Source: an uncultured Pseudomonadales bacterium (lineage in GTDB: Bacteria > Patescibacteriota > Microgenomatia > UBA1400 > UBA1396). Taken from it: DNA of 64,000 nucleotides. The stretch's first letter is position 1; each line of letters starts with the position of its first letter. The DNA is taken from positions 1,413-65,412 of the forward strand of contig CAZFLN010000003.1 in assembly GCA_964519905.1 (NCBI GenBank). Direction: 5' to 3'. Below, one piece after another: positions 13,587 through 62,416 of this stretch. The position numbers and the translations under genes were made by a program. Below the pieces are notes generated by a model, which was given only the letters and a program-made list of their open reading frames with translations, had not been told where the DNA came from and did not search any database.

Positions 13587-13588
13587 GG

Positions 13589-14119: not shown

Positions 14120-14148
14120 TGTATTCCTTTCTGCTCTGGATTCAGAGA

Positions 14149-15165: not shown

Positions 15166-15226
15166 ACGATTCTTTCTCCTCTTCTTGCATTGTACAGGAC
15201 GACGTTTATCTGGCAGAATAGGCGGG

Positions 15227-19794: not shown

Positions 19795-19796
19795 AT

Positions 19797-22472: not shown

Positions 22473-22485
22473 CAAGTGAGGCAGC

Positions 22486-23652: not shown

Positions 23653-23659
23653 AAAGCAA

Positions 23660-24805: not shown

Positions 24806-24816
24806 GAAAGGACAAC

Positions 24817-26546: not shown

Positions 26547-26585
26547 TTTCGTTTCTCTCTTTGAGGAACAGATCAGAAGGAACCT

Positions 26586-44127: not shown

Positions 44128-45447
44128 ATGAAACTGACTGTTATTGGAACTGGATTTGTTGGTGTCGTGAGCGCAGCGGTGTTTGCTTCGTTTGGAAACG
44201 ACGTCTTTGGACTTGATATTGACGAAAAAAAGGTGGAAAGCCTTCGGGCTGGGAAAGTCCCCTTTTACGAACCTGGGCTTGAAGAACTCCTCCAGTCCGA
44301 ACAAGCTGCCGAGAGACTCCAATTTACCACCAGTTATGAATCCGCCGTTGCGGATGCAGATGTTATTTTCATCGCTGTTGGAACTCCTTCAGCCCCAGAC
44401 GGCAATGCCGATCTCCGTTTTGTGTTTGCAGCCGCAGAATCAGCAGCTCAGCATGCAAAAGAAGGTGCCGTTCTTGCCATCAAAAGCACTGTCCCACCAG
44501 GAACACTTGAAAAAATTCAGCCGCTTGTAGAAAAAGCAGCCAAGAATCACATAGTGTTGGCAAGCGTTCCAGAATTTTTACGAGAAGGAACAGCGGTGCA
44601 AGACACGCTGCATCCAGATCGAGTCGTGATTGGCTGTGACGACGAAGTGGCTCGAACCACATTAGCAACCCTGCATGAGCCACTGAACGCTCCGATTATT
44701 TTTACGAAGCCTGAGAGCGCTCAGATGGGCAAGTATGCTGCCAATGCGTATCTGGCGACTCGTATTAGTTTCATTAATCAAATCGCTGATTTGTGTGAGC
44801 AAAATGGCGCCGATGTGCAAGAAGTCATCGAAATTATTGGTCAAGATAAGCGTATTGGACAGCACTACTGGTTCCCTGGTCTCGGGTACGGTGGTTCCTG
44901 TTTTCCAAAGGATGTAAACGAGTTGGCTGCTTACTCTCGTTCTGTTGGTTTGGGTGGAAACTTGTTTAACAAAATTTCTGAGATTAATAAGGATAGAATC
45001 TATCAAAAACTTGATGAGGTGGAAAGCGTTATCGGTGGCTGGCAAGGTAAGACAGTCGCCGTTTTAGGGCTTTCTTTCAAGCCGAATACCGATGACATGC
45101 GAGAGGCTCCGAGTACGAAAGCAGTGCCTCACTTGGTGCAGCGCGGTGCAGTAGTTCAAACATATGATCCTATGGCTACAAAAGCTGCGAAGACTTGGTT
45201 TGCCGACCTTCAGACCGTGGTCTATGCAGATGAAATTTCACAAGCGCTCGAAGGTGCCGATGTTGTTCTGGCTTTAGTGGAGTGGCCAGAGATTATCGGT
45301 TTTGATTTTGTTTCCTGGAAGCAGCAATTTGCGGCCAATCGTGATGTGACCTTCTTTGATGCACGCAACCAATTCAACATGGAAGCACTGGAAAACGCGG
45401 GTTGGAACGTAGTGGCGATTGGCCGCGGAAAGAATCTTTCCGCATGA
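44128..45447 (+). CDS. ugd: UDP-glucose 6-dehydrogenase family (nucleotide-sugar dehydrogenase)
   Basis: MKLTVIGTGFVGVVSAAVFA Rossmann. Catalytic GGSCFPKD block. UDP-binding C-terminal domain. Confidence 0.85.
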   Translation: MKLTVIGTGFVGVVSAAVFASFGNDVFGLDIDEKKVESLRAGKVPFYEPGLEELLQSEQAAERLQFTTSYESAVADADVIFIAVGTPSAPDGNADLRFVFAAAESAAQHAKEGAVLAIKSTVPPGTLEKIQPLVEKAAKNHIVLASVPEFLREGTAVQDTLHPDRVVIGCDDEVARTTLATLHEPLNAPIIFTKPESAQMGKYAANAYLATRISFINQIADLCEQNGADVQEVIEIIGQDKRIGQHYWFPGLGYGGSCFPKDVNELAAYSRSVGLGGNLFNKISEINKDRIYQKLDEVESVIGGWQGKTVAVLGLSFKPNTDDMREAPSTKAVPHLVQRGAVVQTYDPMATKAAKTWFADLQTVVYADEISQALEGADVVLALVEWPEIIGFDFVSWKQQFAANRDVTFFDARNQFNMEALENAGWNVVAIGRGKNLSA

Positions 45448-46415
45448 TTTCTCCACACTCTCGAATTCTCATAACTGGGGCGGACGGTTTTGTTGGTTGG
45501 CATGTTTTGCAGCAGCTGCAGAAATCAGGGTATCAAGATCTGCACGTTACAACCTATTCTTCCTCGGAAAGACTCAAAGCTGCTTGTGGGGCGGAGAATG
45601 TCCATCAGTTAGACCTTACTGACACCAGCGCAGTTTTGGAATGTGTGAGAGAACTCCAGCCAGCAGCGATCCTGCATTTTGCTGCTTGGTCGGCAGTGGG
45701 CAGCAGCTTTGATAACGCCTCAAAAGTTATGAATATGAATACGGCCTTGCAGCTTTCTGTTCTTGAAGCGATTCGTCAAGCTGCACCACAAGCGCGACTC
45801 CTCTGTATTGGTTCAGCTCATGGGTATGGTCACATTTCAGCCGACCTCAATCCACATCAAATCACTGAAGAGTATCCATTGAATCCAGACAATCCCTATG
45901 CGGTTTCGAAAATTACACAGGAAATGTTGTCACGGGCTTACAAGTTTGCGTATGGTCTGGATATTGTTTTTGTACGTCCATTTAATCAAATTGGGCCTGG
46001 TCAATTGAATGAGTTTGCTGTTCCAAGTTTTGCTGAGCAAATTGCGGCGGTAGAACGAGGAGAGCAAAGTGTCGTTCAAGTTGGGAACTTAGACGCGGTG
46101 CGAGATTTTACCGATGTCCGAGACGCCGCTGTAGCGTATCAAATTCTGCTTGAATCAGGTATTTCTGGAGAGACCTACAACTTGGGATCCGGTGTGGGAA
46201 ATACCATGGAAGCTGTGCTCAACATTTTAAGAGGTCTTGCCGAGACAGAAGTACGTGTCGAAGTCGATCCCAGTCGTCTGCGTCCAAGTGATATTCCAGT
46301 ATTTGTAGCTGATGCTACTCGGCTCAGAGCACTTGGGTGGCAGCCTTCCTACTCGCTTGAGGACACGCTCCATGATATTCTCAAGGATATACGATCAAAA
46401 AAGAAACACGAATAA
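45444..46415 (+). CDS. rmd: GDP-4-dehydro-6-deoxy-D-mannose reductase (Rmd-like SDR)
   Basis: ATGA overlap with ugd. [34 protein letters not shown] and [16 protein letters not shown] blocks closely resemble Rmd rather than Fcl. It sits immediately upstream of gmd. Confidence 0.6.
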
Positions 46416-46429
46416 AAGAAGTGGAACGT

Positions 46430-47404
46430 ATGAAAAAAGCGTTTATTACCGGAATCACCGGACAAGATGGATCCTACTTGGCGGAGTTATTGCTGAGCAA
46501 AGGATACAAAGTATATGGCCTGACTCGACGAACCAGCACTCAGAATTTTGAGCGTATCGAGAGCATAGTCGAGAATCCGAACTTGGAATTGGTTTCTGGA
46601 GACTTGACCGATCAACACTCCATGACCCAAGCTCTCTCCGAAATTCAGCCAGATGAAGTATATAACTTAGCAGCTCAGTCATTCGTAAAGACCAGCTGGG
46701 ACCAGCCAGTTTTGACCGGTGATGTTACAGCTATTGGTGTGACTCGATTGCTGGAAGCAGTTCGCTTGGCTTGTCCTCAAGCAAAAGTGTATCAAGCTTC
46801 ATCTTCTGAAATGTTTGGTCGCGTGATGGAGGTTCCTCAATCTGAGCAGACACCTTTCTATCCACGTTCTCCGTACGGTGTTGCCAAGGTATATGGTCAC
46901 TGGATCACAGTGAACTACCGCGAATCATATGACATGTTTGCTGTCTCTGGAATTCTCTTTAATCATGAATCACCACGTCGTGGCTTGGAGTTTGTCACTC
47001 GTAAGATTAGTTACAACGTGGCACGTATTGCGCTTGGGTTACAAAAAACGGTCAAGCTGGGCAATCTTGATGCCAAGCGAGACTGGGGATATGCCAAGGA
47101 TTACGTAGAAGCTATGTGGCTCATGCTGCAGCAGGAAAACCCAGATGATTACGTCATCGCTACTGGTGAAACCCATTCAGTTCGCGAGTTTGTGCAAAAG
47201 GCCTGTGCTGTAGCGGGAATTGCTGATTGGGAATCTATTGTTGAGATCGATGAACGATTTATGCGACCGGCAGAAGTTGATTTGTTGATCGGAGATCCAA
47301 GTCACGCTAAGAACCAATTAAACTGGGAACCAAAAACTTCTTTCGACGAACTTGTGCAACTGATGGTAGAAGCCGATTTAGAAAGTATTCGGAAGACACT
47401 GTAA
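46430..47404 (+). CDS. gmd: GDP-mannose 4,6-dehydratase
   Basis: [30 protein letters not shown] and [18 protein letters not shown] blocks. An alternative GTG at 46421. Confidence 0.9.
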
Positions 47405-47440
47405 ATACAATCGAAAAGAGAGAAAGCGATTAAAGTTACT

Positions 47441-48667
47441 ATGGCCACGAAAAAACTGCCACGAGCCATCATTCTTATTCCAACGTATAACGAGGCTGGG
47501 AACATCCCAAAACTCCTTCCTCGCATTGCCAAGGTTCGAGAAGGAATAGATTCGTGGGATGTTCAAGTTCTGGTTATTGATGACTCTTCCCCAGATGGTA
47601 CGGGTCAAGTCGTTTTAGATTTACGTAAGAAGTACGATTTTCTCCATTTGTTAGTGAACAAGAAAAAGAGTGGTCTCGGTGGTGCCTACTTAAAAGGTAT
47701 GGCCGAAGCTTTTGGGAACATGGGCGCGGATGTTGTATTTGAAATGGATGCTGATCTGTCTCATGATCCCAAAAAACTTCCAGAGTTTTTGGCTGCTCTC
47801 GATGCTGGGGCTGATATGGTGCTGGGATCTCGTTACATTCCAGGTGGATCTATTCCAAGTAATTGGGGTCCGCACCGAAAATTTTTAAGTGTGGCCGGCA
47901 ATCTCTTTATTTCTTTGGTCTTGATGTCTCGAGCAGTTCGAGACTGGACTGGGGGCTACCGGGCAATTCGACGGAATGTCTATGAAGCCGTGCATGAGGA
48001 AATGGAGCAGTCAGCCAAGTTCACTGGGTATACTTTCCAAATTGGATTTTTGCATAAAGCGTTGCGCGCTGGATACAAAATTGTAGAAGTGCCTTTCCAC
48101 TTTGTTGATCGTACCGTTGGTGAGTCAAAGTTGGGAACAGAGTACATTATTAACACACTGAAGTACATTCTCCGAGTTCGAGTCGAAGAGATTTTTTCTT
48201 CTCGGATTTTTAAGTTTGCCATGGTTGGTGGAATTGGTTTCCTGGTCAACTTAATTGCCTTTAATATTTTCAAACTTTTCTCACTGTGGACAGGCTTGGC
48301 ACAAGTTCTTGGTGTGGCAGTGGAAAATCCAATTTTTTCTGATCAATCACTGGCTGTGATTCTGGGGGCTGAAGTTGCCATCGTTTCGAATTATTTACTG
48401 AATAATCTCTGGACTTTCCAAGACAGACAGATACACGGATTTTTCCGCCACTTACGCAAATTCTTTCAGTTTAACGTTGGCTCCGTTGGATCGATAGTGA
48501 TTCAATACGTTGTTATGCAGGCCAGCGTGGCTTTGCTGGGGGTGTTCCCTCTGTTCCATATCGGAAGCTTTGCTTTGCAGAGTGACAATTTATACTTAGT
48601 GGCCGGGGTGCTCATTGGCATGATTTGGAATTTCTCGGTATATAGTTTGATAATTTGGAGAAAATAA
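47441..48667 (+). CDS. polyprenol-phosphate glycosyltransferase (DPM1-like GT2) fused to a C-terminal GtrA-like membrane domain
   Basis: AIILIPTYNEAGNIPKLL, VLVIDDSSPDGT and DADLSHDP. The C-terminal ~120 aa has four TM segments (FKFAMVGGIGFLVNLIAFNI...) typical of GtrA. Confidence 0.7.
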   Translation: MATKKLPRAIILIPTYNEAGNIPKLLPRIAKVREGIDSWDVQVLVIDDSSPDGTGQVVLDLRKKYDFLHLLVNKKKSGLGGAYLKGMAEAFGNMGADVVFEMDADLSHDPKKLPEFLAALDAGADMVLGSRYIPGGSIPSNWGPHRKFLSVAGNLFISLVLMSRAVRDWTGGYRAIRRNVYEAVHEEMEQSAKFTGYTFQIGFLHKALRAGYKIVEVPFHFVDRTVGESKLGTEYIINTLKYILRVRVEEIFSSRIFKFAMVGGIGFLVNLIAFNIFKLFSLWTGLAQVLGVAVENPIFSDQSLAVILGAEVAIVSNYLLNNLWTFQDRQIHGFFRHLRKFFQFNVGSVGSIVIQYVVMQASVALLGVFPLFHIGSFALQSDNLYLVAGVLIGMIWNFSVYSLIIWRK

Positions 48668-50283
48668 TGGCTCGAACTTTACAGAATTTTTGGGAACGGT
48701 ATACAGCTTGGTGGGAGAAACAATCCAATCTTGAACAGTGGGCGTTTGTTTCCCTCTGTGTTTCGTTTTGTATTGGTGCTGCTTTTCGATTCACAAATCT
48801 AGCCGCGAGTCTCCAATTTCAAGCCGATCAAGGAAGAGACGCAATTGTTGCCTACAATATTTTGCATGGTGACATTGCTTTGTTGGGACCATCCACAAGT
48901 GTGGGGAGTATGTATCTTGGTCCACTCTATTACTACTTCATGGCACCGTTTATTAGTTTATTTGGTATGAGTCCGATTGGACCAGCCATAGCGGTGGCTA
49001 CACTAAGCCTTTTGACTCTACCTATTTTGTTCTTGATTGTACGACGGTGGTTGGGCGTGACTGTGGCCACTTTTTCTGTTCTTGCTTATGCCACAGCTCC
49101 TTGGGTAGTAGAGTACTCACGATTTTCTTGGAATCCTAATCCTGCTCCAATTGTCAGTCTATTGCTGTGGTGGTCTGCCTGGAAGGCATTGCAGGGAAAG
49201 TACCGATGGTGGATGGCTGTTGGATTGTGGGCAGCAGTATTAATGCAGCTGCACTATGTTGCATTGCTCGCTATTGCTCCAGTTGGAGTGTGGTGGTTGT
49301 GGAATGGCGGGGAACTACTCTGGAAGCGTTCTTGGCATCAGCTTCGATCTTTTCTACTTTGGAGTTTTGGTGCTGGTTTGGTAGTTCTTGCTTCATTTAC
49401 TCCATTAGTGGCGTTTGATATCCGTTTTGACGGATTGATTCGCAGCGGATTCGAAGAATTTTTGTCAGGGTCTCAATCTGGTGAAGCATCGTCAATTGGA
49501 AGTTTACAGCGAGTTTGGCGCGAGCAAGAAGGAAGAACACTCTATAGTTTTGGTGAGTTTTGGGGTGGAAAAGATTCTATTCCTGCGTATCGAACAGTTC
49601 TGAAGAGTGTTCTCTTGGGAGTTGGAGTGGTATGGTTGTTTTTTGCATGGAGACTGAGGAGTCTTGGGAAATTAAAAATTTGGATGTACCTTACTTCCAT
49701 AATAGTTACTTCTATTGTCGGATTAGCTTGGTATCGTGGAGTTTTGCATGCGCATTACATAACATATTTGTATCCCATTGTGGGCATTGTTTTGGGTTCA
49801 GGAGTTACAGAATTGGCTTGTAGAGGACGCCTGGGACGAGTATTTGCTGGTATATTATTATCCCTAGCAATTGGAGCAAGTCTTATCCCAGGGACATACT
49901 ATTTCTTGGACTCTGCTGGCTGGCAATACAAAGATATGAGATTTATCTCACAACGGGTATTAGCTGAAGTTCCAAAAGATGCTACTTACTCTTTGACATT
50001 GCTTTCAGAAATTCGTGACTATCGTGGAATGAACTATAGGTATTTCCTTATTACATCTGATCATCCACCGATTGATTTAGCAGTTTCCCATGAAGCAGAC
50101 TACTTGGTTATTATCGCAGAATCTCCTGATGAAGCAGCTGATGTTCTTGGCTCACCGGTGTATGAAATTGTAACTTTCCCGAAAGGACAGTATCGTGTTG
50201 TTCAAGAGGATCGTGGACCAAAGATTTACATTATTGAAAATAGGGACAAAACACTCGGCATTCCAGAGAACGATACTCCGTGA
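48667..50283 (+). CDS. GT-C fold membrane glycosyltransferase (family 39/83, ArnT/PMT-like)
   Basis: First-loop acidic motif FQADQGRDA. More than 10 TM segments. Hydrophilic C-terminal domain. Start coupled to the upstream stop. Confidence 0.55.
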   Translation: MARTLQNFWERYTAWWEKQSNLEQWAFVSLCVSFCIGAAFRFTNLAASLQFQADQGRDAIVAYNILHGDIALLGPSTSVGSMYLGPLYYYFMAPFISLFGMSPIGPAIAVATLSLLTLPILFLIVRRWLGVTVATFSVLAYATAPWVVEYSRFSWNPNPAPIVSLLLWWSAWKALQGKYRWWMAVGLWAAVLMQLHYVALLAIAPVGVWWLWNGGELLWKRSWHQLRSFLLWSFGAGLVVLASFTPLVAFDIRFDGLIRSGFEEFLSGSQSGEASSIGSLQRVWREQEGRTLYSFGEFWGGKDSIPAYRTVLKSVLLGVGVVWLFFAWRLRSLGKLKIWMYLTSIIVTSIVGLAWYRGVLHAHYITYLYPIVGIVLGSGVTELACRGRLGRVFAGILLSLAIGASLIPGTYYFLDSAGWQYKDMRFISQRVLAEVPKDATYSLTLLSEIRDYRGMNYRYFLITSDHPPIDLAVSHEADYLVIIAESPDEAADVLGSPVYEIVTFPKGQYRVVQEDRGPKIYIIENRDKTLGIPENDTP

Positions 50284-50300
50284 TACAGTAAGGAAGCACT

Positions 50301-51062
50301 ATGGCACATCCATATCTCTCAGTCATTATTCCTGCCTATAACGAAGCCAAGAATTTCCAGCGTGGAGCACTCGACGAAGTATTGGCATATCTTCAGAAAC
50401 AGTCATTTGCTTGGGAAGTTATTCTGAGTGATGATGGTTCAACCGACAATACCGTCGAACTCCTTGAAAAGTTTGCCAAGCGTCATGCTGGAGTTCGTGT
50501 TTTGCAGAATCCACATCAGGGAAAAGGCCCAACTGTGACTGCTGGTATGCTGGCTGCGACTGGAAAGTATCGTTTGTTTACTGATTTTGATCAGTCTACG
50601 CCGCTGTCTGAGTTTGAGAAATTCGAACCTTTCTTTGACGACGGATATGATGTGGTAATCGGTTCACGAGAGATTCAAGGAGCTCGTCGAAAAGACGAAC
50701 CAATTCATCGTCACATAATGGGCAAGGGATTTAATATGCTGGTGCAGTTTGTGGCTGTTCCAGGGATTCATGATACGCAGTGTGGATTTAAGCTTTTTTC
50801 TGCGGAAGCCACCGAAAAACTTTTTCCTCGTTTGCGCGTCTATGGAGCCAAAAAGCGACAGGATGCTTTCACTGGTGCGTTTGATGTGGAGTTGCTTTTG
50901 CTCGCCAGGCATTTTAAGTATCGCATCGCTGAGGTTCCGGTAGAGTGGAATCATCATGAGACTGATCGAGTGAGTCCACTCAAAGACTCTATTCGAATGT
51001 TGGTTGATGTTTTGCGAATTCGCTGGACTGCTCTACGAGGACTGTACTCACATGCTGAGTAA
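50301..51062 (+). CDS. polyprenol-phosphate glycosyltransferase (DPM/GtrB-like GT2)
   Basis: LSVIIPAYNEAKNF, VILSDDGSTDNT, DFDQSTP and a TQCGFKLF block. Confidence 0.75.
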   Translation: MAHPYLSVIIPAYNEAKNFQRGALDEVLAYLQKQSFAWEVILSDDGSTDNTVELLEKFAKRHAGVRVLQNPHQGKGPTVTAGMLAATGKYRLFTDFDQSTPLSEFEKFEPFFDDGYDVVIGSREIQGARRKDEPIHRHIMGKGFNMLVQFVAVPGIHDTQCGFKLFSAEATEKLFPRLRVYGAKKRQDAFTGAFDVELLLLARHFKYRIAEVPVEWNHHETDRVSPLKDSIRMLVDVLRIRWTALRGLYSHAE

Positions 51063-52332
51063 ATGGATATCTCAACCGCAATTCCCCCGCTTTTTTTGGC
51101 TTTTTTCTGCGTTCTGGAGTGTGATCCTCTTGTCACTGTCATGGTGGTCATACGCTTTGGTTGATGGGAATCTTACCTTGCTCCCCTGGGAACCATTTAT
51201 GCAGTGGCAAACAAGTCGTTGGCAAGCTCAAGCGAATTTTTCGCTGATTGCTTGGCAGTATGTTGGGATTGTTCTGGTCTGGTGGGGAATGTTTTTATCT
51301 GTATTTGCCTTGTGGCACAAAGAATCAGTGCAAAAAGTTTCTTGGGCTTTTGGAGTGTTGTCTTTGACAGGAATTCTTTTCCTGTTTCTTGGACATAATG
51401 CTCACACTCGAGATATTTACAATTACCTTTTTAATGCCAAGATGTGGTTGAGTTACGGCGCGGATCCTCATATACGTACGGCGCTTGAATTCTCATACGA
51501 TCCCTGGACTCGTTTTATGCATAATACCCATATGCCAGCCCCATATGGATATGGCTGGACTCTCTGGTCATTTATTCCGTATATTCTTTCTGGAGCAGGG
51601 ATGTCATTTTTACTTTCATATTTTGCTATGCGAGGTTGGATGGTTTTGGGACTGCTCTTGCTTTTGGTTGCCACCTGGTGGGCGGTTCAATCTCAGGTTT
51701 TCTCAAAATCAGAACGCTGGTGGCGTTGGGCATTGGTTGGCTTGCATCCACTTCTACTCATGGAAGCTGTTTTGAACGGTCACAACGACGTGTGGATGAT
51801 GGCTCCAGTGATTGTAGCCTACGGTATTGCCCTGAGACCTCGACAGCGATGGCATTGGATTGTGATTCTCTTTTTGTTGGCATTCTCTGCGTTTTTGAAG
51901 TTTGCAACCGTCGCCGTTTGGCCAATATTTGTCTTGTTTCTCTTGCAGGATGTTGTTACTCAGATGAAGATTGGAATTCCAAGAATACTGTCTGTTTGGA
52001 AAAATTTTGGCATTCGGTACTCTGGAGATTTCGCCGCAGTGTGTATGGTGCTGCCACTGCTCACTCCGCGTTCAAAGTTTTTCCTCCCATGGTATGCCGT
52101 TTGGTTTCTGGCCTGGTTGCCATTTGGTCGGCTAGAAGGAGTTCGGTGGATACTCTTGGGGTTAAGTTTTACGAGTATGCTTCGTTACGTCCCATGGATG
52201 CTGGCGAACTATTCTTATGACTCTGCGACGATTCAGTCAGAGATGCAACTTATTACTTGGTCAGGATGTTTGCTAGGGTTGAGCTTGTGGATAGTGTGGC
52301 GAGTTATTCAATGGCGTAGATCACAAACATAA
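51052..52332 (+). CDS. polytopic membrane protein, putative GT-C/DUF2029-like glycosyltransferase
   Basis: About 12 predicted TM segments. Conserved-looking loop LNGHNDVWMMAPV. Lies between the GT2 and UbiA genes. The ORF-track start at 51004 overlaps the upstream gene. Confidence 0.35.
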   Translation: MLSKWISQPQFPRFFWLFSAFWSVILLSLSWWSYALVDGNLTLLPWEPFMQWQTSRWQAQANFSLIAWQYVGIVLVWWGMFLSVFALWHKESVQKVSWAFGVLSLTGILFLFLGHNAHTRDIYNYLFNAKMWLSYGADPHIRTALEFSYDPWTRFMHNTHMPAPYGYGWTLWSFIPYILSGAGMSFLLSYFAMRGWMVLGLLLLLVATWWAVQSQVFSKSERWWRWALVGLHPLLLMEAVLNGHNDVWMMAPVIVAYGIALRPRQRWHWIVILFLLAFSAFLKFATVAVWPIFVLFLLQDVVTQMKIGIPRILSVWKNFGIRYSGDFAAVCMVLPLLTPRSKFFLPWYAVWFLAWLPFGRLEGVRWILLGLSFTSMLRYVPWMLANYSYDSATIQSEMQLITWSGCLLGLSLWIVWRVIQWRRSQT

Positions 52333-53254
52333 CAAGAATTCCCCAAGCAATTGCCGCAACCAAAAGTGGTTTATCGCGCAGCAAGACGCGTTCTGGGGAC
52401 TCTCCCTCATTTGATTCATAGACGAGTTGTAGATACCGCATGACTCCGTAAATCGTGAGTGGGACCGTAAGCATGAGAAGTTTTTGCGCCGAAAAAGCGC
52501 GAGGCAGAAACGCAAGGACTGGTGGGACCACGCCAGTAGAAATATCTGTTTCTTGTTGGAAGGCAAAGAGCGCATAGGTCAACCATGCCGCATTGGCGAA
52601 CATACCTGTGTAAATATCGAGCAAACGCACGGAATAGGTGTTGAGCGCTTTGCGTGTGGCAAAACTTTTTCCGGACTCATCAACTCCTGTGAGCAGTGTT
52701 CGCTCACTTTGGCGCTTGGCCACCGCAATAAAGAGTGAGACAGAAATAACTGTCAGCAAGAACCAGACGCTCATGTGCAGATTTACGACGACTGCTCCCG
52801 CGTATACTCGTACCATAAATCCCGCGGCAATGGAGAGCACATCAAGAATGGAAATATGCTTAAACACAAAGCTGTAGCTGACTTGCAAAGCGACATACGC
52901 CAACATCAGTAAAAACACAAACGGTGACAGCAACCAGCCGCCAAAAAGGGCTATGCTGACCAGCACTGAAGCGGCGATTCCGGCTGTAACTGGTGAGAGC
53001 TTTCCACTTGCCAACGGGCGCTTTTTCTTGAAGGGATGTTTGCTATCGGATTCGCGATCAACAATATCATTGAGAACGTAGATCGACGAGGAAAGAAAAC
53101 AAAACAAAATAAACGTTTCCGTGACTCTCCAAAAATAACTTGGGAAATCATAAAAGAAAAAACCAGAGAACACCAGAGCAGCGAAGACAGCCAAGTTTTT
53201 TAACCATTGGCGCGGTCGGAAAGTCTTGAGGAGATAATAGAGCGTTGTAACCAT
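52304..53254 (-). CDS. UbiA prenyltransferase family protein (decaprenyl-phosphate phosphoribosyltransferase-like)
   Basis: NDIVDRESD (NDxxDxxxD) motif followed by KKKRPLASGKLS. Eight to nine TM segments. Confidence 0.55.
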   Translation of the reverse strand: MVTTLYYLLKTFRPRQWLKNLAVFAALVFSGFFFYDFPSYFWRVTETFILFCFLSSSIYVLNDIVDRESDSKHPFKKKRPLASGKLSPVTAGIAASVLVSIALFGGWLLSPFVFLLMLAYVALQVSYSFVFKHISILDVLSIAAGFMVRVYAGAVVVNLHMSVWFLLTVISVSLFIAVAKRQSERTLLTGVDESGKSFATRKALNTYSVRLLDIYTGMFANAAWLTYALFAFQQETDISTGVVPPVLAFLPRAFSAQKLLMLTVPLTIYGVMRYLQLVYESNEGESPERVLLRDKPLLVAAIAWGILVMFVIYAIE

Positions 53255-54294
53255 ACCAGCAGAGTGATAAAGATCAGTCCTGCAGCCATCATAGCATATC
53301 GCTTGCCCTCACTGCGGAGGCTTAGAGCCAGGATTCCAAAGATGAGCGTGGTAAGCCAGTAAAATCGAGCTATCTGCGGAATACTCCAGCCTGAATCGAG
53401 CATGCGGTGGTGGAGGTGTCCTCGGTCTCCCCAGAACGGTGATTTGCCCGCCGCCAGGCGGCGGGTGACGGCAAAGACGGCGTCGGCGGTCGGGATCGCC
53501 AGGAGAAGTAAAACCGTGGCAAGTTTTGCCCCCGACAAAATAGCTAACACGGCTAGAAAGTATCCGGCCAGCGATCCCGCGGCGTATCCAGGCATCATTT
53601 TCTGTGGATATTTATTCCACATCAGCAAACCAAAGTAGGCTCCACTGACGCTCAGTGCCAAAATAGTCACTGGCCATTGGCTGGTATCTCCGGCAAATCG
53701 AAGACTCAGCAAGGCAATGACCAAGGCAGCAATTGTTACGAAGCCGGGAAGTTGCCCATCCACGCCTTTGGACCAGTTTACAGCGTTCATGTTCCAGACA
53801 ATCCACAAGAGCGCGAGTCCGTCGGCAATGGGAGAAAAAGAGGCCTGGTAACCGAGAATCGAAAAAACTTGTGTGCCAATGGTTAAGTCTATGGTTCCAG
53901 GACCAAATGGATTGGTGACATAGTCGATGCCCACTCCGCCAAGGATCACACAGCCAGCAGCCAAAAAATTGAGGAGCCAGCGAATAAGTGGGTGAATGTC
54001 GTAGCGGTCATCGAGTGTTCCGCTGATCAGGAGAATAATAGCCCCAAGAATGACGCCAAGAATGGCGGAATCCCAAGGCCAGAGCAAAAATCCTCCCAAA
54101 ATGAGTCCAGCGGCAATCACGAGTCCTCCACCACGGGGAACCGGTGTGGTATGCACAGTTTTGGGATGGGAATTTTTATTGGGATCGTCAATCCAGCCAA
54201 TTTGTGAATAGAGTCGAATCACCAATGGCGCGGCTGCGGTGGACAGAAAAGCGGATCCTGCCCAAAGCAGCCCAAAGAGTGCCGCGGGGTTCAT
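53200..54294 (-). CDS. polyprenyl-phosphate N-acetylhexosamine-1-phosphate transferase (WecA/MraY family)
   Basis: IDDPNKNSHPKTVHTTPVPRGGGLVI block and multiple TM segments. Start taken at MNPAALFGLLW. Confidence 0.6.
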   Translation of the reverse strand: MNPAALFGLLWAGSAFLSTAAAPLVIRLYSQIGWIDDPNKNSHPKTVHTTPVPRGGGLVIAAGLILGGFLLWPWDSAILGVILGAIILLISGTLDDRYDIHPLIRWLLNFLAAGCVILGGVGIDYVTNPFGPGTIDLTIGTQVFSILGYQASFSPIADGLALLWIVWNMNAVNWSKGVDGQLPGFVTIAALVIALLSLRFAGDTSQWPVTILALSVSGAYFGLLMWNKYPQKMMPGYAAGSLAGYFLAVLAILSGAKLATVLLLLAIPTADAVFAVTRRLAAGKSPFWGDRGHLHHRMLDSGWSIPQIARFYWLTTLIFGILALSLRSEGKRYAMMAAGLIFITLLVWLQRSIISSRLSDRANG

Positions 54295-54644
54295 AGGATA
54301 ACTTTCATTATTCTCAGGAGCGCTAAGAGAAGCATTCCTTGTAAGAAACATACCGCCCACCAATTTAAGTGAGCGAGGTAGTTTTCGTGCTCAAGGTCGG
54401 TGACTCGTCCGTACAAAAATCCGATTACGAGAATCCATGTACTCAGCGCCGCGAAACTTACAACTGCCCAACTTGGAGCCAGTTGGTCCGTGAATTGGGT
54501 CAGTGAGTACCAGAGGGGAAGCGTTGTTGGGCCAATCCAGTACAGAAGTCCGCTGAGCGCACAGACACTGAACCAGAGAGCAGTGGAAATTCCCATCAGT
54601 CGGTTATGCTTAAAGTCGTAGCGAGGGAAACGAATCTTGGCCAT
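54291..54644 (-). CDS. small hypothetical membrane protein
   Basis: 117 aa with three hydrophobic segments. Coupled between two glycosyltransferase genes. Coding status is uncertain. Confidence 0.3.
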   Translation of the reverse strand: MAKIRFPRYDFKHNRLMGISTALWFSVCALSGLLYWIGPTTLPLWYSLTQFTDQLAPSWAVVSFAALSTWILVIGFLYGRVTDLEHENYLAHLNWWAVCFLQGMLLLALLRIMKVIL

Positions 54645-54656
54645 ACGTGTATTGTA

Positions 54657-56300
54657 TCAATTCTGGAAAAGGTGCAGACTTGGGTTGTTTGGTAGAGCAC
54701 CGCTTTCTGCAGAACTGCGATGGTAGATGATCATTTCACTCGTTTCGAGCACGGGTACATAATTTTGATTCATGTAGGTTTTTAGTTCTGGCCAGAGGGA
54801 CTCTTTTTTCATTTCAACAATAATTTTTGGTTCTGCCGCGATGACATCTTGGAGTACTTCATCATAGTTCTTGAGATCGTGTATATGGAAGGCTACAGTA
54901 AAACGACTGGCCGGATGACGCTGTGCTTGCGCGTAGAGAGTTGGGTTTGTACCCCAAATAAAAATAGGATCACCAGATGGAACAACACTCTGGATGTATG
55001 GCACGAGAGTTTCATTTTGCGGAACGATTCCGTTGAATCGAGCGCGATACTCAGCTGGTTGGGTGTGTCCAGTGAGAAGTTTCCAGGCGTTTTCGTAGTA
55101 CTGTCGTGTGGGATAGTGTCCGAATCCAATAAGCTCAGAGGCTCCCCAGAAAAGAAAGAATGTTACGAGGATTCCCCCTCGAGTTAGCCAGCCGGTGCTT
55201 GTCTGAATGAACCAACCCACAAGAAGTGCCATTGGTGGCACGACTTGGATCAGATAGTGCGGATAGGGCCGATTGGATAATAGTGCGCCAAACAGCGCCG
55301 CAACCAGCCAGAACATGGTCCAGGCTGGGAGTGCTTGTTTGGGAAACTTCCAAGTCAGAAGCAGTGCCAGGAGGAAACTTGAGATGAGTACCATTGTTTT
55401 GCCTGGCAAACTGAGAAGAAACAGCAAAGCCGGGTTTTGAACTGGCAGTGACCATGTTCCAGTGTAATGGAAGTTGTAGAGCAGTCCAAATTCAAGATAC
55501 TCTGTCCCCGCGCCTCGCACCCAGAAATAGAGGATGGAGAGGAGCAGAGGAGTAACGAAACCAGCAGTGAGTGCCAAGCCATGGGCCAAGAGTATTTGCA
55601 GATTTTTGAAAGGTGATTTTTTCCTAGATTTAAGCGAGAGAAGGAACGAAAAAATCACCACACTGCCTATGGCTCCAAGATCCAGAATAGCAGGCACTTT
55701 TGTGAGCAATGCCAAGCCGACGACTGCTCCAGCAGCACCAAATCTCCAGAGTTGGTACCCAGGCGCAACAGGTGCTTTCTTATTTTCCAGTGTTTTCCAC
55801 CAGCCAGCACGAGCGAGCCACCACATACCAGCCAACAAAAATCCAAGCACAAAGAGTTCCCCATTTGGAATATTTCCTTCCCAGCGAGGCAGACAGGTGG
55901 CGAGTACAAATATTCCAGTTGCGAGCCACGTTCCCCAACGATTCAACCAGCGTTTCGCAAGAAGATAGAAAAAGGTAGTACTTGCCAAGCTCCAGACTAT
56001 ATTGAGCACTCGGAACCAAAACTGATCCGGAACCATTGCCAGGTAATAAATAATCGGAGTCTTATGATCAACGATGTCCCTGTACAGAATGGCTCCATTG
56101 CGGAGTGCAGTTCCTATGGTGAGATAGATGGCTTCGTCACCGTACCAGTAGGGCTCTGCTAAGTTGGGGATTCGCAAAAGCAGATTCAGTGCCAGGAATA
56201 TTAACAAGGCTTCCTGATTATTCGCCCAGGTATTGAATTGAAGAAATCGAGTTTTGATACTTTGCCACGAAAGAGTGTGTGAGACACGAGACATACACAA
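54657..56300 (-). CDS. GT-C fold membrane glycosyltransferase (family 39/83, ArnT/PMT-like)
   Basis: Loop motif AEPYWYGDEAIYLTIGTAL (DE motif). More than 10 TM segments. C-terminal soluble domain. Confidence 0.6.
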   Translation of the reverse strand: MCMSRVSHTLSWQSIKTRFLQFNTWANNQEALLIFLALNLLLRIPNLAEPYWYGDEAIYLTIGTALRNGAILYRDIVDHKTPIIYYLAMVPDQFWFRVLNIVWSLASTTFFYLLAKRWLNRWGTWLATGIFVLATCLPRWEGNIPNGELFVLGFLLAGMWWLARAGWWKTLENKKAPVAPGYQLWRFGAAGAVVGLALLTKVPAILDLGAIGSVVIFSFLLSLKSRKKSPFKNLQILLAHGLALTAGFVTPLLLSILYFWVRGAGTEYLEFGLLYNFHYTGTWSLPVQNPALLFLLSLPGKTMVLISSFLLALLLTWKFPKQALPAWTMFWLVAALFGALLSNRPYPHYLIQVVPPMALLVGWFIQTSTGWLTRGGILVTFFLFWGASELIGFGHYPTRQYYENAWKLLTGHTQPAEYRARFNGIVPQNETLVPYIQSVVPSGDPIFIWGTNPTLYAQAQRHPASRFTVAFHIHDLKNYDEVLQDVIAAEPKIIVEMKKESLWPELKTYMNQNYVPVLETSEMIIYHRSSAESGALPNNPSLHLFQN

Positions 56301-56801: not shown

Positions 56802-57431
56802 TTATGCTCTTGCCACTGTGAGCGCATATATGTTTCTCACTCCAGCAGCGTTGAGAGCTCGAGCGCACGCACTGAGTGTGGCTCCTGTTGTGTGGACATC
56901 GTCTACCAGGCAAACGGTTTTGTACTGACTGCGTCGTGTACATCGAAACGCGGTGGTAATGTGGTGACGGTGATTTTTATCTTGTCCCGCCTGCGACTGC
57001 TGCCAGTGGGTTCGGTGTAGGAGTGTTGTGTCCGTGGGAATGCCTGATCGACAAGAAAGACGTTCTGCGAGCAGAACTGTCTGATTGAATCCTCGAGCGC
57101 GCTGGCGCTTGGGGTGGAGAGGGACTGGGATGAGTGCTTCTATTTTGTGTTGGTGGAGCCAAGGTTGGCTTTGCTGCGCCAGCGCGTCTCCCAGCGGCTG
57201 AGCAAGTACTCGTGCTCGTTTGTACTTATAGGTATGGAGGATTTTTGCCATGTGCTCGTCGTACTCACAGAGACTCCAGATTTTTCGCAGACTTGGATGG
57301 GCGAGTTTGGGCAGGACTTCTGGCCGATCACACCAAGACATTCTGCGCCAGCAACGGGCGCAAATCCATTTCCTGAATCGCCCACACCCTTGGCAAAACG
57401 GTGGAAACAATATATCGAGGATATGCATCAA
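56802..57431 (-). CDS. comF: ComF family protein (phosphoribosyltransferase domain)
   Basis: N-terminal Cys-rich zinc finger (CQGCGRF...CARCW). C-terminal PRTase motif VCLVDDVHTTGATL. Confidence 0.75.
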   Translation of the reverse strand: MMHILDILFPPFCQGCGRFRKWICARCWRRMSWCDRPEVLPKLAHPSLRKIWSLCEYDEHMAKILHTYKYKRARVLAQPLGDALAQQSQPWLHQHKIEALIPVPLHPKRQRARGFNQTVLLAERLSCRSGIPTDTTLLHRTHWQQSQAGQDKNHRHHITTAFRCTRRSQYKTVCLVDDVHTTGATLSACARALNAAGVRNIYALTVARA

Positions 57432-57496: not shown

Positions 57497-58168
57497 ATGG
57501 AAGAAATGCTCGCCCCGCTTATTAATTGGATTGAGTCGCTCGCCACGAGTGTCAGTCTCGAAGTTTTTGTGGTAGTGGGAGCGTTCTTAGAAGAGCTGAT
57601 TGCTCCGATTCCTTCTCCGTTTGTGATGACTACTGCTGCCGTGCTGGCACAAGTCCAAGGGTATACTTGGATGCATCTTGGATTCTTGATCCTGCTCGCC
57701 ACTGCTGCCAAAACGCTCTCTACGTACTGTGTGTACGTGATTGCTGATAAAGCAGAAGATGTGGTGATCGGGCGTTTTGGAAAGTATTTTGGCGTTTCCC
57801 ACGGTCACATTGAAAGTCTTGGCAAGATGTTGACCAAGTCTTGGTGGGATGATGTGCTGCTGCTGATCGCTCGCTCGGTGCCGATTATCCCAACCTTCCC
57901 AGTTTCTGTTGGTGCGGGTGTGATCAAGTACAACGTTCGCTCGTACGTGCTAATGACATTTATTGGAACATTTATTCGAAACATTATTTATCTTTGGGTC
58001 GCGTACTTTGGCTGGAATGGTTTCCAAGCCATTCGCCGAGATCTGTGGGAACACCCACTGTGGCTGGCGATTGGTGTGATTGTTTTGCTCTTGATCTTCA
58101 TCTGGATTATGCGGGCCAAAGATACGCTCTGGGAGCGAATTCTGCGCAGAAATCCGTTTCAAAAGTAG
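57497..58168 (+). CDS. DedA/VTT-domain family membrane protein
   Basis: 223 aa with multiple TM segments and DedA-like blocks (GAFLEELIAPIPSPFVM, LIARSVPIIPTFPVSVGAGV). Confidence 0.6.
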   Translation: MEEMLAPLINWIESLATSVSLEVFVVVGAFLEELIAPIPSPFVMTTAAVLAQVQGYTWMHLGFLILLATAAKTLSTYCVYVIADKAEDVVIGRFGKYFGVSHGHIESLGKMLTKSWWDDVLLLIARSVPIIPTFPVSVGAGVIKYNVRSYVLMTFIGTFIRNIIYLWVAYFGWNGFQAIRRDLWEHPLWLAIGVIVLLLIFIWIMRAKDTLWERILRRNPFQK

Positions 58169-58269: not shown

Positions 58270-58356
58270 GGAAGGGTCGCATAGTGGTCGAGTGCGGTAG
58301 TCTTGAAAACTACTGAGGGTTTACGCTCTCCGTGGGTTCGAATCCCACCCCTTCCG
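58270..58356 (+). tRNA. tRNA-Ser (anticodon UGA)
   Basis: Acceptor GGAAGGG/CCCTTCC, 3-bp D-stem, anticodon stem GTAGT/ACTAC with loop CTTGAAA, long variable arm, T-arm GTGGG-TTCGAAT-CCCAC. No encoded CCA. Confidence 0.9.
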
Positions 58357-58486
58357 CAAGTCTTTCTCGCTTTCCCATTCGCTGCTATACATGGAATAAT
58401 TTGATGTATGGTGTACTATATGTTGTAAACTCACATCTCAGTTTTCCTTGTTTTTTTATGTAGTATGTAGAAGAAAAAATTTGTTT

Positions 58487-59317
58487 ATGAAAAATGCACA
58501 TTTTTTAAATGGTCAAATTGTCTCTGAGGATGATCTACAGATATCACCACGAGATTTGGGCTATTCCCGTGGATATGCTGTTTTTGAATTTATGCTTGCT
58601 CATAAAGGTCGTCCGTTTATGCTTGATAAGCATATGGATAGATTGTTTGCTTCTTGTGAGTCAATAGCACTTACTCTACCTTGGTCAAAAGAGCAAATTT
58701 CTGAATGGGTACTAAAAACTCTTGATGCAAATAAGTCTAAAGAAGAAAAAGTTATACGTATCATAATTTCCGGGGGACCATCTGAGACACTTGTTCCTGC
58801 AAGTATGCCCACCATAGTGATGGTGGTTGATTCTCGTCTTGGAGGCCTCCCTGAAGAATATGAAAAGGGCGTTCATGTTTTGCTTTCTGAATTTCAAAGG
58901 TATGAGCCTCAAGCTAAAACAAATAATTATATTGAAGCAGTTCGGCAGTTTAGATCCATACCTAAGGATATTCATGAAGTTATATATCATTCCGAAAATA
59001 TGGTGCGTGAAGGAACAAGGTGTAATGTGTTTGCATTGGTAAATGGTACTTTGGTCACTCCTAGAACTGGTATTTTGGAAGGAATCACAAGAAGTGTAAT
59101 ACTTAATGAATTACAACTGTCCCTACCAGTTGAGACGAGAGATTTTTCTGTAAAAGAATTACTTGAATCTCCAGAAGTATTCATCACTGCAACAAGTAAG
59201 GAAGTGATGCCAGTAACTAAGCTGAACAACCAACTTGTGGGAGATGGTTTAGTAGGTCCCGTCACCAAAGAGGTAATGAGTAAGTTCCGCGCTTTTTTTG
59301 AGTCAGATCTTTGGTAG
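58487..59317 (+). CDS. class IV (fold type IV) aminotransferase (D-amino-acid/branched-chain aminotransferase family)
   Basis: RGYAVFEFM, RIIISGGPS and EGTRCNVFALVNGTLVTPRTGILEGITRSV blocks. AT-rich codon usage. The true start is taken as MKNAHF. Confidence 0.65.
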   Translation: MKNAHFLNGQIVSEDDLQISPRDLGYSRGYAVFEFMLAHKGRPFMLDKHMDRLFASCESIALTLPWSKEQISEWVLKTLDANKSKEEKVIRIIISGGPSETLVPASMPTIVMVVDSRLGGLPEEYEKGVHVLLSEFQRYEPQAKTNNYIEAVRQFRSIPKDIHEVIYHSENMVREGTRCNVFALVNGTLVTPRTGILEGITRSVILNELQLSLPVETRDFSVKELLESPEVFITATSKEVMPVTKLNNQLVGDGLVGPVTKEVMSKFRAFFESDLW

Positions 59318-59325
59318 TTTTTTTG

Positions 59326-60138
59326 TTAGGTCCACAAAGATAGTGCCCCATCTTTCAATGTCATGAATGTGTTAAGTGCAAGTCGTGGTTTGTTTGACTT
59401 TATTGCTTCTACTTGGTGAAAATTTCGTGATCGAAACACTACTAAATCTCCCGCTGAGGGCATTACCGTGGCGTGTGGAGTACTATTGAGAAAGTCCTCG
59501 GTGAAGCCATACGTTCCTTTTTGTCCAATATCATTATTGTGCCCCTCGTCCTCTTGTTTCCAAGGTCGATTGTAGACAGTCAACCCTCCACCTTGAGCGA
59601 CCATCTGGAGATATAATACGAGACCAAATTGCTCCTGTGAATCAGATACGCTCCATCCTGGCAGTTGATTTGGAGCATAGTCAAAGTGTAGGGTGCTTTT
59701 TGCTCCCATAGCTCTAATAAGGCCTGCGAAGTATTGAGCATTTTGCATATCTGGTTCAGTCGCTAGAGAAGTGATGTAACTACGTGAAAAAAGTTCAATA
59801 ATTCTATTGATTGGGTTTCGGACGCCTTCAAATATTTCATCTCGAACTCTTGAAGCTTGTGGAGCTGAATCAAAGTACTTTTTCTTACCATCATCTTTAT
59901 AGTGATATTCTGTTGTGCTTATACCAATTCTACCCTGCTGATTTTCTTTGTTTGGGTACCACTGTATTGCTTTTTTTTCCAAATTTTTGATCACTATTTC
60001 GAGTTCTTGTGATAATAAGAATTGACTGATTTGAATAGCTGCAAATTCGTTTGCTGAAAGTGCTGGAAGGAGTGAGGATACTTCAACTGAGTCATCTGCG
60101 CCTAATTGAGCCACGCTCCATTGATTCTCTTTGCTCAT
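59326..60138 (-). CDS. 2-oxoglutarate/Fe(II)-dependent oxygenase superfamily protein
   Basis: HxD (LHFDY), distal His (NFHQVEAI) and Arg (RLAL) spaced as in PhyH/P4H-like dioxygenases. Confidence 0.5.
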   Translation of the reverse strand: MSKENQWSVAQLGADDSVEVSSLLPALSANEFAAIQISQFLLSQELEIVIKNLEKKAIQWYPNKENQQGRIGISTTEYHYKDDGKKKYFDSAPQASRVRDEIFEGVRNPINRIIELFSRSYITSLATEPDMQNAQYFAGLIRAMGAKSTLHFDYAPNQLPGWSVSDSQEQFGLVLYLQMVAQGGGLTVYNRPWKQEDEGHNNDIGQKGTYGFTEDFLNSTPHATVMPSAGDLVVFRSRNFHQVEAIKSNKPRLALNTFMTLKDGALSLWT

Positions 60139-60261
60139 AGTATCTCCTTTTCCTATCTATAATATGTTGTTTATAAATTTGGATCTTATCATGGAAGTTA
60201 CTTGGAAAGTAGCGCATACTTGGAATCGTGTATAATTTAGCATCTGGGAAAAGGTACTCAT

Positions 60262-61713: not shown

Positions 61714-62336
61714 CAGGATCAATTTATCTCATCGGGGGAGGAGAAATTAGAGGTGGGGAAACCCATCTAATCCATGAGAATATTATGTCGCTTGCTCCCA
61801 AAGGATCTACTCTCGTGTTTTTTGGTTTTGCTGCACAAGATAGTGCTGATTATGCTAATGCTATCAAATCTGTTTTTGGCAAGAAATTTAAAGTTTTAGT
61901 TCCTACAAAAGAAAAAGGTCATGAATATGCTATCAACGCTATTCAATCCTCATCAGTAATATATCTTGGCGGTGGCGATACAGATCTATTGATACGATTA
62001 TTTTCTGAGTGGAAGCTTGTTGAACATTTATCAGCTGCAGTCGCAAAAGGTGTTCATGTTGCGGGTATGAGTGCTGGGGCTCAAGCGTTGTCTCATTGGT
62101 ATATCCATGAAGAAGGCGAAAACATGGAAGTAAGAAAGGGTTGGGGTTTTGCTTCTGTCTGCACGCTAGTACATGCTCATCGAGACTCATTCGAAAAGGC
62201 CAAATCTGTATGGGAGAACTTCCCGAGAGAGGATGAGTGTTCTTTTGTGGCGATTGGCGAGAGAGCCGCCTGGTGTATTAACTCATCGGGAAAGCAAAGA
62301 ATTGGCAGTGGCAATATTTATGGAGAAGATTCTTAG
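61710..62336 (+). CDS. peptidase S51 family (dipeptidase E/cyanophycinase-like)
   Basis: IYLIGGGE, VIYLGGGDTDLL and catalytic-Ser block VAGMSAGAQAL. ATGA overlap with the upstream oxidoreductase. Confidence 0.6.
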   Translation: MTGSIYLIGGGEIRGGETHLIHENIMSLAPKGSTLVFFGFAAQDSADYANAIKSVFGKKFKVLVPTKEKGHEYAINAIQSSSVIYLGGGDTDLLIRLFSEWKLVEHLSAAVAKGVHVAGMSAGAQALSHWYIHEEGENMEVRKGWGFASVCTLVHAHRDSFEKAKSVWENFPREDECSFVAIGERAAWCINSSGKQRIGSGNIYGEDS

Positions 62337-62416
62337 TATTGTTTACCGAGTTAAGGTAACGAACGTGATACAATGCAATTGTTCTATTAAATCGCTAGGC
62401 ACCCAAGGGAGACGCA

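Follow-up and report, generated by a model that had tools for sequence, protein, structure and literature searches.

It is already established that pentofuranose glycosylation systems occur widely beyond the Actinobacteria: in other bacteria a polyprenyl-phosphate 5-phosphoribosyltransferase (PPPRS), a flippase and a glycosyltransferase of the GT-C class deliver pentofuranoses outside the membrane, the sugar being ribofuranose by default, or xylofuranose (Xylf) or arabinofuranose (Araf) where the epimerases ORF13 or DprE1/DprE2 act (Kelly et al. 2024, PMC11127046). A preliminary description of the 64,000-nt stretch of DNA analysed here (the window), which regarded a pathway of this sort as unusual outside Actinobacteria, is therefore outdated on that point. 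The pathway would be encoded by a block of eleven genes at positions 44128-56300 (locus II), confirmed by open reading frame (ORF) listing and by Pfam and NCBIfam scans, in a member of the Patescibacteria, or Candidate Phyla Radiation (CPR), that is close to Woesebacteria. Locus II probably specifies the transfer of sugars from polyprenyl phosphate by GT-C enzymes outside the membrane, with a donor derived from 5-phosphoribosyl-1-pyrophosphate (PRPP) that is probably a ribofuranose. This chemistry is of a known kind but has not previously been described in Patescibacteria: no paper was found in the literature joining Patescibacteria or CPR with decaprenyl-phosphate phosphoribosyltransferase or GT-C, nor, in the DprE1 and mannosyltransferase/polyprenyl literature searched, joining CPR with DprE1 or mannosyltransferase. 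The words 'glycan', 'teichoic' and 'polysaccharide' appear nowhere in the text of one recent overview of Patescibacteria (PMC11665869), and a CPR protein-family study does not discuss such glycans (PMC6744442).

Judged from its sequence, the UbiA homolog of locus II is an Rv3806c-type polyprenyl-phosphate phosphoribosyltransferase. Its score against the decaprenyl-phosphoribose (DPPR) synthase model NF008977 is 239.8 bits (cut-off 234), versus 20-38 bits against the heme-O, UbiA and MqnP models, and its only relatives of solved structure are those of Mycobacterium tuberculosis Rv3806c (8j8j, E 1.3e-40; 8j8k, E 1.1e-31), to which it is 35% identical over 274 aligned residues. In Rv3806c, PRPP and Mg2+ are contacted by R22, K28, Y70, N73, D77, K87, R90, Q135, Y138, K143, Y157 and K208, of which K28, Y70 and Y157 bind the 5-phosphate, N73 and Q135 the ribose, and a lysine/arginine cluster (R22, K87, R90, K143 and K208) the pyrophosphate; the phosphoribose contacts are not common to classical UbiA enzymes (PMC10994848). 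The equivalents in the window protein are, in the same order, R13, K19, Y59, N62, D66, K76, R79, Q124, Y127, K132, F146 and K202. All twelve are counted as kept, the replacement of Y157 by phenylalanine being found in some mycobacteria as well, and among them are the residues specific for phosphoribose, which classical UbiA prenyltransferases do not have. Most of these contacts are invariant across 42 CPR homologs, and so are the two motifs described for PPPRS, NDxxDxxxD in cytoplasmic loop II and K-R-x-x-E in loop IV (PMC11127046), which appear here as N62-D63-x-x-D66-x-x-x-D70 and K180-R181-x-x-E184. The protein has 316 aa and no extra domain. Because of the DPPR-synthase score, the similarity to Rv3806c and the retained PRPP contacts, it is placed with Rv3806c and not with the menaquinone or heme O enzymes, the two placements that the preliminary description had set against each other.

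The genes around PPPRS are conserved as well. One genome per GTDB species was scanned with two PPPRS peptide patterns, which gave 174 species; neighbours were counted in the best 80 loci (L006-L085) by local ORF calling, BLAST and clustering over flanks of +/-10 kb, and the neighbour scan covers representatives of clusters common to at least 4 of the 80 loci, as far as these were scanned. All 80 species-level loci are patescibacterial by gene content. A polyprenyl-phosphate sugar-1-phosphate transferase of the WecA/MraY superfamily (PNPT) is encoded immediately upstream of PPPRS in 80/80 loci, a protein of about 120 aa at position -2 in 71/80, and a GT-C of the 545-aa type at position -3 in 66/80; farther out, a 501-aa protein without Pfam match occupies position -4 in 52/80, and a bacterial PMT (PMT + PMT_4TMC) position +1 in 42/80. 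The last two proteins, which flank the core elsewhere, have no homolog in the window; one homolog of the 501-aa family, in the locus L005, has a weak Glyco_trans_2_3 match. The core cassette is the rule in the patescibacterial lineage, not the exception. The full eleven-gene block is syntenic in four loci (L001-L004, two each from Woesebacteria assemblies and JGI contigs) and is confined to the closest relatives, to which the few loci (6-10 of the 80) with the half extending from ugd to the MptA/B-like GT-C belong as well. Since the core is widespread and this half is so restricted, locus II can be read as an ancient patescibacterial core with a lineage-specific addition; given the synteny of block and core, the grouping of the eleven genes is no chance juxtaposition. 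Apart from these, the conserved neighbours have housekeeping roles (TatD, MetRS, RmuC, AddA-like helicase, RecA, GAPDH, PGK, M23 peptidase, TrxR-like, FemAB and GDH).

Three of the locus proteins have their top homologs in metagenome-assembled genomes (MAGs) of Candidatus Woesebacteria, Pacebacteria and the 'Patescibacteria group'; an exact-product look-up of the window proteins returned no recorded entry, and homologs were used instead. Many of the relatives' INSDC TPA_asm MAG records are titled 'uncultured Pseudomonadales bacterium' (for example, isolate HK-STAS-PATE-15). The cassette in such records has 56-72% protein identity to that of Woesebacteria and Pacebacteria, and the titles are probably taxonomic mislabels.

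All eleven genes listed in the preliminary description are present, and its family calls are borne out by Pfam, NCBIfam and structure comparison (Table 1). It was right to place the last GT-C gene on the opposite strand, but the genes for the UbiA homolog, PNPT and the small membrane protein are on the minus strand too, making four in all, which are convergent with the plus-strand genes. Several gene starts sit a few codons 3' of the longest-ORF start, and a promoter and terminator scan did no better than with shuffled sequence. The minus-strand genes are tightly coupled: those of PNPT and PPPRS overlap by 55 nt, and the stop codon of the gene for the 117-aa protein, which has three predicted transmembrane (TM) segments and a conserved PLWYSL..EQL motif, overlaps the start of the PNPT gene as ATGA. 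The candidate primer enzyme PNPT belongs to its superfamily by Pfam (70.5 bits versus a cut-off of 27), by similarity to MraY (5jnq, E 2e-7) and by an NxxNxxDGxDG-type motif, but falls under the equivalog cut-offs for WecA (TIGR02380, 74.3 versus 326 bits) and MraY (TIGR00445, 50 versus 192), so that its sugar cannot be assigned; the earlier call of a WecA/MraY-type GlcNAc-1-phosphate transferase holds for the superfamily and not for WecA proper. The 117-aa protein, for which no Pfam match was found, may be a flippase or an accessory subunit of the GT-C. Its identification as a GtrA-like flippase was rejected (hhalign probability to the GtrA domain 0.06%).

The three GT-Cs of locus II are unrelated to one another at the profile level (hhalign E 0.1 and 0.35), hence different enzymes and not recent paralogs. 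The 426-aa and 545-aa proteins had no match in sequence or profile searches against PDB, and none in Pfam at E<=10 with a library that lacks PF26314 and PF27757, but AlphaFold models of the two (111 and 119 homologs; pLDDT 94.2 and 93.4, respectively) have confident GT-C folds, which together with the Pfam match of the PMT_2 enzyme upholds the earlier view that these candidates are GT-C enzymes and not transporters. In fold comparison the 426-aa model scored 18.6 with ALG3, 16.4 with GPI-MT-I, 15.9 with ALG6 and 15.5 with PimE, versus 11.5 with AftB; the 545-aa model scored 21.4 with GPI-MT-I, 21.3 with ALG3, 18.7 with AglB, 18.4 with Pmt4 and 17.5 with ArnT, versus 13.6, 11.9, 11.5 and 7.4 with the arabinan enzymes AftA, AftB, AftD and EmbA. 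As modelled, the GT-Cs of the locus resemble PMT, ArnT, ALG3 and PimE more than the Emb and Aft enzymes. Most homologs of the 426-aa protein are annotated with the Pfam family MptA_B_family (PF26314), though the entry of the window protein itself (P0121) is not; for homologs of the 545-aa protein the annotation is PMT (PF02366). In the 545-aa protein the first outer loop contains an invariant W-Y-G-D-E sequence, and a small alpha/beta domain lies at the C-terminus. Many members of its family have a weak precomputed match to PF27757 ('Competence-induced_Ccs4_N'), which hints that the N-terminal region of streptococcal Ccs4 may also be GT-C-like.

At the head of the plus-strand operon are the nucleotide-sugar genes ugd, rmd and gmd. 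The position of ugd is syntenic in L001-L004, and its product matches UDPG_MGDP_dh domains at E 2.8e-61 and better and TIGR03026 at 427.5 bits (cut-off 189.8). The ATG of rmd and the TGA of ugd share an ATGA overlap, so that the preliminary description correctly called rmd start-coupled to ugd. The closest solved structure to the rmd product is an Aneurinibacillus GDP-6-deoxy-D-lyxo-4-hexulose reductase (2pk3, E 1.5e-61), with the RMD structure 6x3b at E 2.3e-40; an assignment of this short-chain dehydrogenase/reductase (SDR) as a UDP-glucuronic acid (UDP-GlcA) decarboxylase or epimerase was rejected, the RMD structures being better by at least 20 orders of magnitude. Two modules follow, each consisting of a GT2 synthase and a GT-C. 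In the first, the synthase of dolichol-phosphate mannose synthase (DPMS) type aligns with its Pyrococcus counterpart (5mlz, E 1.9e-41) over residues 9-367, which span both domains, and with ArnC at E 1e-14; its TAA stop codon overlaps the ATG of the PMT_2 GT-C as TAATG, with a GGAG Shine-Dalgarno sequence. In the second, the soluble GT2 consists of the catalytic domain only, with DPMS (1.9e-13) and ArnC (2.5e-12) as its closest solved relatives and NCBIfam matches of the polyprenyl-phosphate glycosyltransferase type; its gene overlaps that of the MptA/B-like GT-C by 11 nt. A GT-A domain related to DPMS and ArnC is thus predicted in both GT2 enzymes, with a C-terminal TM domain in the first, while all of their NCBIfam equivalog scores are far under the cut-offs.

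Table 1. Coordinates of the genes of locus II and of related or adjoining genes in the window.
Feature	Position	Strand	Basis or context
ugd, UDP-glucose 6-dehydrogenase (forming UDP-GlcA)	44128-45447	+	three UDPG_MGDP_dh domains, TIGR03026
rmd, GDP-4-keto-6-deoxy-D-mannose reductase (forming GDP-D-rhamnose or 6-deoxy-hexose epimer)	45444-46415	+	2pk3
gmd, GDP-mannose 4,6-dehydratase	46421-47404	+	TIGR01472, 459.9 bits versus cut-off 415
DPMS-type polyprenyl-phosphate hexose synthase, GT2 + C-terminal 4-TM GtrA_DPMS_TM; putative module 1 donor synthase	47441-48667	+	PF00535, PF04138
PMT_2 GT-C (ArnT/PMT-like); putative module 1 transferase	48667-50283	+	PF13231, 41.6 bits versus cut-off 26.1
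Soluble GT2, DPM1/ArnC/Ppm1-D2 type; putative module 2 donor synthase	50301-51062	+	PF00535, E 1.6e-27
426-aa GT-C, GT-C_B type, MptA/MptB-family-like; putative module 2 transferase	51052-52332	+	AlphaFold fold, homologs' PF26314
Polyprenyl-phosphate 5-phosphoribosyltransferase (PPPRS/DPPR synthase type, UbiA fold); putative module 3 donor synthase	52304-53254	-	NF008977
PNPT, candidate primer enzyme	53200-54294	-	PF00953
117-aa protein, three predicted TM segments	54291-54644	-	conserved at -2 of PPPRS
545-aa GT-C (PMT/ArnT-like); putative module 3 transferase	54657-56294	-	AlphaFold fold, homologs' PMT
ManC-type GDP-mannose pyrophosphorylase, other glycan locus	24745-25929	+	NTP_transferase + ManC_GMP_beta-helix domains
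ComF-like phosphoribosyltransferase-domain protein	56802-57431	-	next to locus II; also adjoins in L001/L002 and 6/80 loci
DedA/VTT-domain membrane protein	57497-58168	+	PF09335, E 1e-11

Taken as a polyprenyl-phosphate-sugar/GT-C pathway, the locus would work as follows. On the cytoplasmic face, Gmd and Rmd would turn GDP-mannose into GDP-D-rhamnose, and Ugd would form UDP-GlcA; the ManC enzyme of the other glycan locus would be the source of GDP-mannose both for these two enzymes and for the DPMS-type synthase. Polyprenyl phosphate would be loaded by three enzymes: the DPMS-type GT2 with its 4-TM domain, the soluble DPM1/ArnC-type GT2, and PPPRS, which would transfer from PRPP to give polyprenyl-phosphate-ribofuranose-5-phosphate. 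The PNPT, translationally overlapped with PPPRS, would make a polyprenyl-diphosphate-sugar primer. Following removal of the 5-phosphate, perhaps by a HAD/PAP2-type phosphatase that may be encoded elsewhere in the genome, and flipping, three unrelated GT-Cs would pass the sugars to an acceptor outside the membrane, for which a lipoglycan, a surface protein and a primer-linked wall glycopolymer are candidates. Adjacency suggests three modules: the DPMS-type GT2 with the PMT_2 GT-C, the soluble GT2 with the MptA/B-like GT-C, and PPPRS with the 545-aa GT-C, which shares its operon. The pentose is most likely ribofuranose and not arabinofuranose, because neither a 2'-epimerase (DprE1/DprE2) nor a 3'-epimerase is linked.

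Several points weigh against this pathway. No HAD or PAP2 phosphatase was found in the scanned ORFs of the window or the scanned representatives of conserved neighbours, and no LCP ligase in the window or among the conserved neighbours of the 80 loci. No recognisable MATE, SMR or GtrA flippase lies beside PPPRS, where the 117-aa protein is unlike known flippases; the GtrA_DPMS_TM domain in the locus sits on the neighbouring DPMS-type synthase. No acceptor protein was identified at the locus, and no consumer of UDP-GlcA in the block. Sequence does not reveal which donor sugars the two GT2 enzymes use, the pairing of one synthase with one GT-C is drawn from gene order only, and the functions of the CPR proteins discussed here are predicted. 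Finally, DprE1 and DprE2 could be encoded farther away than the 64 kb of the window and the flanks of +/-10 kb reach, in which case the sugar might be arabinofuranose.

It is conceivable, though rather unlikely, that the GT-Cs are instead protein O-glycosyltransferases that modify pilins, S-layer or other surface proteins, like actinobacterial Pmt/Ppm1 and Pseudomonas TfpW, with the PNPT belonging to another pathway and neither a lipoglycan nor a wall polysaccharide being made. Two of the three GT-Cs match PMT-type Pfam models (PMT_2 and, for the 545-aa homologs, PF02366), and the invariant D-E pair in the first outer loop of the 545-aa GT-C presumably resembles the loop-1 DE motif of PMT. Elsewhere in Patescibacteria a canonical PMT + PMT_4TMC gene comes right after PPPRS (in the 42 loci mentioned above), a PPPRS ortholog is used for the glycosylation of Pseudomonas pilin with Araf (PMC11127046), and type IV pili are abundant in CPR bacteria (PMC6744442). 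However, the overlap of PNPT with PPPRS and their adjacency in every one of the 80 loci argue for a shared pathway with an acceptor linked to lipid diphosphate; the named members of the MptA/B-like family, MptA and MptB, act in lipomannan/lipoarabinomannan synthesis; and no acceptor protein gene is linked.

The polyprenyl-phosphate-sugar/GT-C reading can be carried further, to a proposal that we consider unlikely as it stands: that many Patescibacteria (Microgenomates, Woesebacteria, Pacebacteria and those labelled Paceibacterota) build a core envelope polymer from PRPP-derived polyprenyl-phosphoribose by means of the invariant GT-C/3-TM/PNPT/PPPRS cassette. Since no phosphatase or epimerase is linked, the product might be a primer-anchored ribofuranan or even a polymer containing ribose-5-phosphate, which would stand in for teichoic acid in these episymbionts that scavenge lipids and nucleotides; the 3-TM protein would represent a novel type of flippase or of GT-C subunit, and the D-rhamnose and mannose-type modules would have been added by the lineage of the window.

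An arabinan of truly actinobacterial style, in which the PPPRS product would be dephosphorylated and then epimerised to polyprenyl-phosphate-arabinofuranose by DprE1 and DprE2 encoded elsewhere and the conserved GT-C would be an arabinofuranosyltransferase acting on a WecA-primed linker, is improbable. In its favour, PPPRS is a bona fide relative of Rv3806c, a PNPT primer enzyme always adjoins it, and the inspection extended over only 64 kb here and 10 kb on either side in the relatives. Against such an arabinan, the search for DprE1 and DprE2 suggested by the preliminary description came up empty: neither a DprE1-type FAD_binding_4/ALO protein nor a DprE2-type SDR was found in the window or in the scanned conserved neighbours of the 80 loci, whereas the described Araf systems hold DprE1/DprE2 homologs within candidate modification systems (PMC11127046). 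Members of the Glf, GlfT1/2 and WbbL families are absent from the window, as are Glf and GlfT from the conserved neighbours of the 80 loci, and the 545-aa GT-C is nearer in fold to GPI-MT-I, ALG3, PMT and ArnT than to the Aft and Emb enzymes. The actinobacterial logic that had been ascribed to the locus is thus retained in its general parts (a WecA-type primer enzyme, polyprenyl-phosphate donors and GT-Cs) but in nothing specific to arabinogalactan (AG) or lipoarabinomannan (LAM), for DprE1/DprE2, Glf/GlfT and PAP2 were not found. That the UbiA homolog is an ordinary aromatic or isoprenoid prenyltransferase of the menaquinone, heme O or ubiquinone type in a coincidental neighbourhood, as a generic Pfam UbiA match and the JGI automatic label '4-hydroxybenzoate polyprenyltransferase' on some homologs might suggest, has next to no chance of being correct and is already contradicted by the data, namely the DPPR-synthase score against those of the heme-O, UbiA and MqnP models, the Rv3806c structures as sole solved relatives, the kept phosphoribose-binding residues, and the linkage to PNPT and GT-C that persists across related loci.

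Locus II is flanked by unrelated housekeeping genes, with a 5'-3' exonuclease and FtsH on the 5' side and the ComF-like and DedA/VTT proteins and a tRNA-Ser on the 3' side. The DedA/VTT gene adjoins the block in L003/L004 and not in the 80 GTDB loci, a weak association, and neither it nor the ComF-like gene is a member of the conserved core. DedA proteins are linked to the recycling of polyprenyl phosphate, which may be the function of this one. The other glycan locus (12756-28628) differs in type and contains rmlD- and rmlC-like genes and genes for an SDR, a GT2, a Wzy_C-like protein (16344-18203), a PMT-like GT-C (18025-19794), three GT4 enzymes, another GT2, ManC, a Bac_transf phosphoglycosyl transferase and a DUF4012 protein; the locus II block, as previously stated, contains no Wzx/Wzy system. 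Farther from both, a 416-aa protein (6037-7287, minus strand) has an NAGPA phosphodiester-glycosidase domain (PF09992, E 2e-15). Enzymes of the NAGPA type cleave sugar-1-phosphodiester linkages, and this one could act on phosphodiester-linked surface glycans. Beyond locus II, a tRNA-Ser(tga) (58270-58357) is followed by a stretch of low GC content extending to 63079 (0.37-0.42, versus 0.45-0.49 elsewhere), which encodes a class-IV aminotransferase, GFO_IDH_MocA-like, Peptidase_S51 and YqcI_YcgG proteins, and a homolog of the WelO5-like 2-oxoglutarate/Fe(II) halogenases/hydroxylases (59326-60138, minus strand; PF22814, E 2e-19). The region from 58270 to 63079 is a possible island or small-molecule cluster and, if so, an unusual feature in a CPR genome.

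Patescibacteria account for a large fraction of bacterial diversity, and their cells live attached to those of a host. Because its core is kept across many species, the cassette is a concrete lead to CPR surface chemistry; the whole block takes up about 1% of a genome of about 1 Mb, a size typical of the group. If the proposed pathway is correct, the host range of PRPP-dependent pentofuranose glycosylation becomes wider, with a variant in which the donor synthase is coupled to a primer enzyme and has neither the phosphatase nor the flippase that usually go with it. Mycobacterial Rv3806c is considered an attractive target for drugs, and the EmbA/B/C GT-Cs are what ethambutol acts on (PMC10994848), so that the same enzyme types could serve as selective handles on CPR bacteria in enrichments.

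Among known systems, the ORF15-ORF14-ORF12 genes of Citrobacter youngae O1/O2 (PMC11127046) resemble the cassette in having a UbiA-fold PPPRS that uses PRPP, a GT-C, and a small membrane protein between them. Unlike theirs, the PPPRS of locus II has neither a HAD phosphatase domain fused to it nor a separate phosphatase encoded in linkage with it; the place of the MATE flippase is taken by the unrelated 3-TM protein of 117 aa; the PNPT is an invariant, overlapping fourth component; and the cassette looks like a vertically conserved core, not a serotype-diversifying addition. With mycobacterial AG/LAM synthesis the locus shares a PPPRS that is a recognisable Rv3806c relative with its substrate contacts kept, a primer enzyme of the WecA superfamily, Ppm1/DPMS-type synthases, a GT-C like the MptA/B family, and an assembly outside the membrane that would rely on GT-C enzymes only. 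It differs in that no DprE1/DprE2, Rv3807c-type PAP2 or Glf/GlfT was found in the window, in lacking any Emb/Aft-type GT-C that has carbohydrate-binding modules, in the possession of GDP-D-rhamnose and UDP-GlcA genes, and in its host, a CPR bacterium with a genome of roughly 1 Mb. In the arabinosylation of group IV pilin by TfpW in Pseudomonas aeruginosa, a PPPRS ortholog likewise feeds a lipid-linked pentofuranose to an extracytoplasmic GT-C, but that system has epimerases and a pilin target, neither of which is linked here, where a PNPT is present. Modules 1 and 2 resemble ArnC-ArnT, Ppm1-Pmt and CsbB-YfhO, each being a GT2 synthase with a downstream, translationally coupled GT-C; unlike those pairs, locus II combines two such modules with a pentofuranose module and the genes for GDP-D-rhamnose and UDP-GlcA in a single block.

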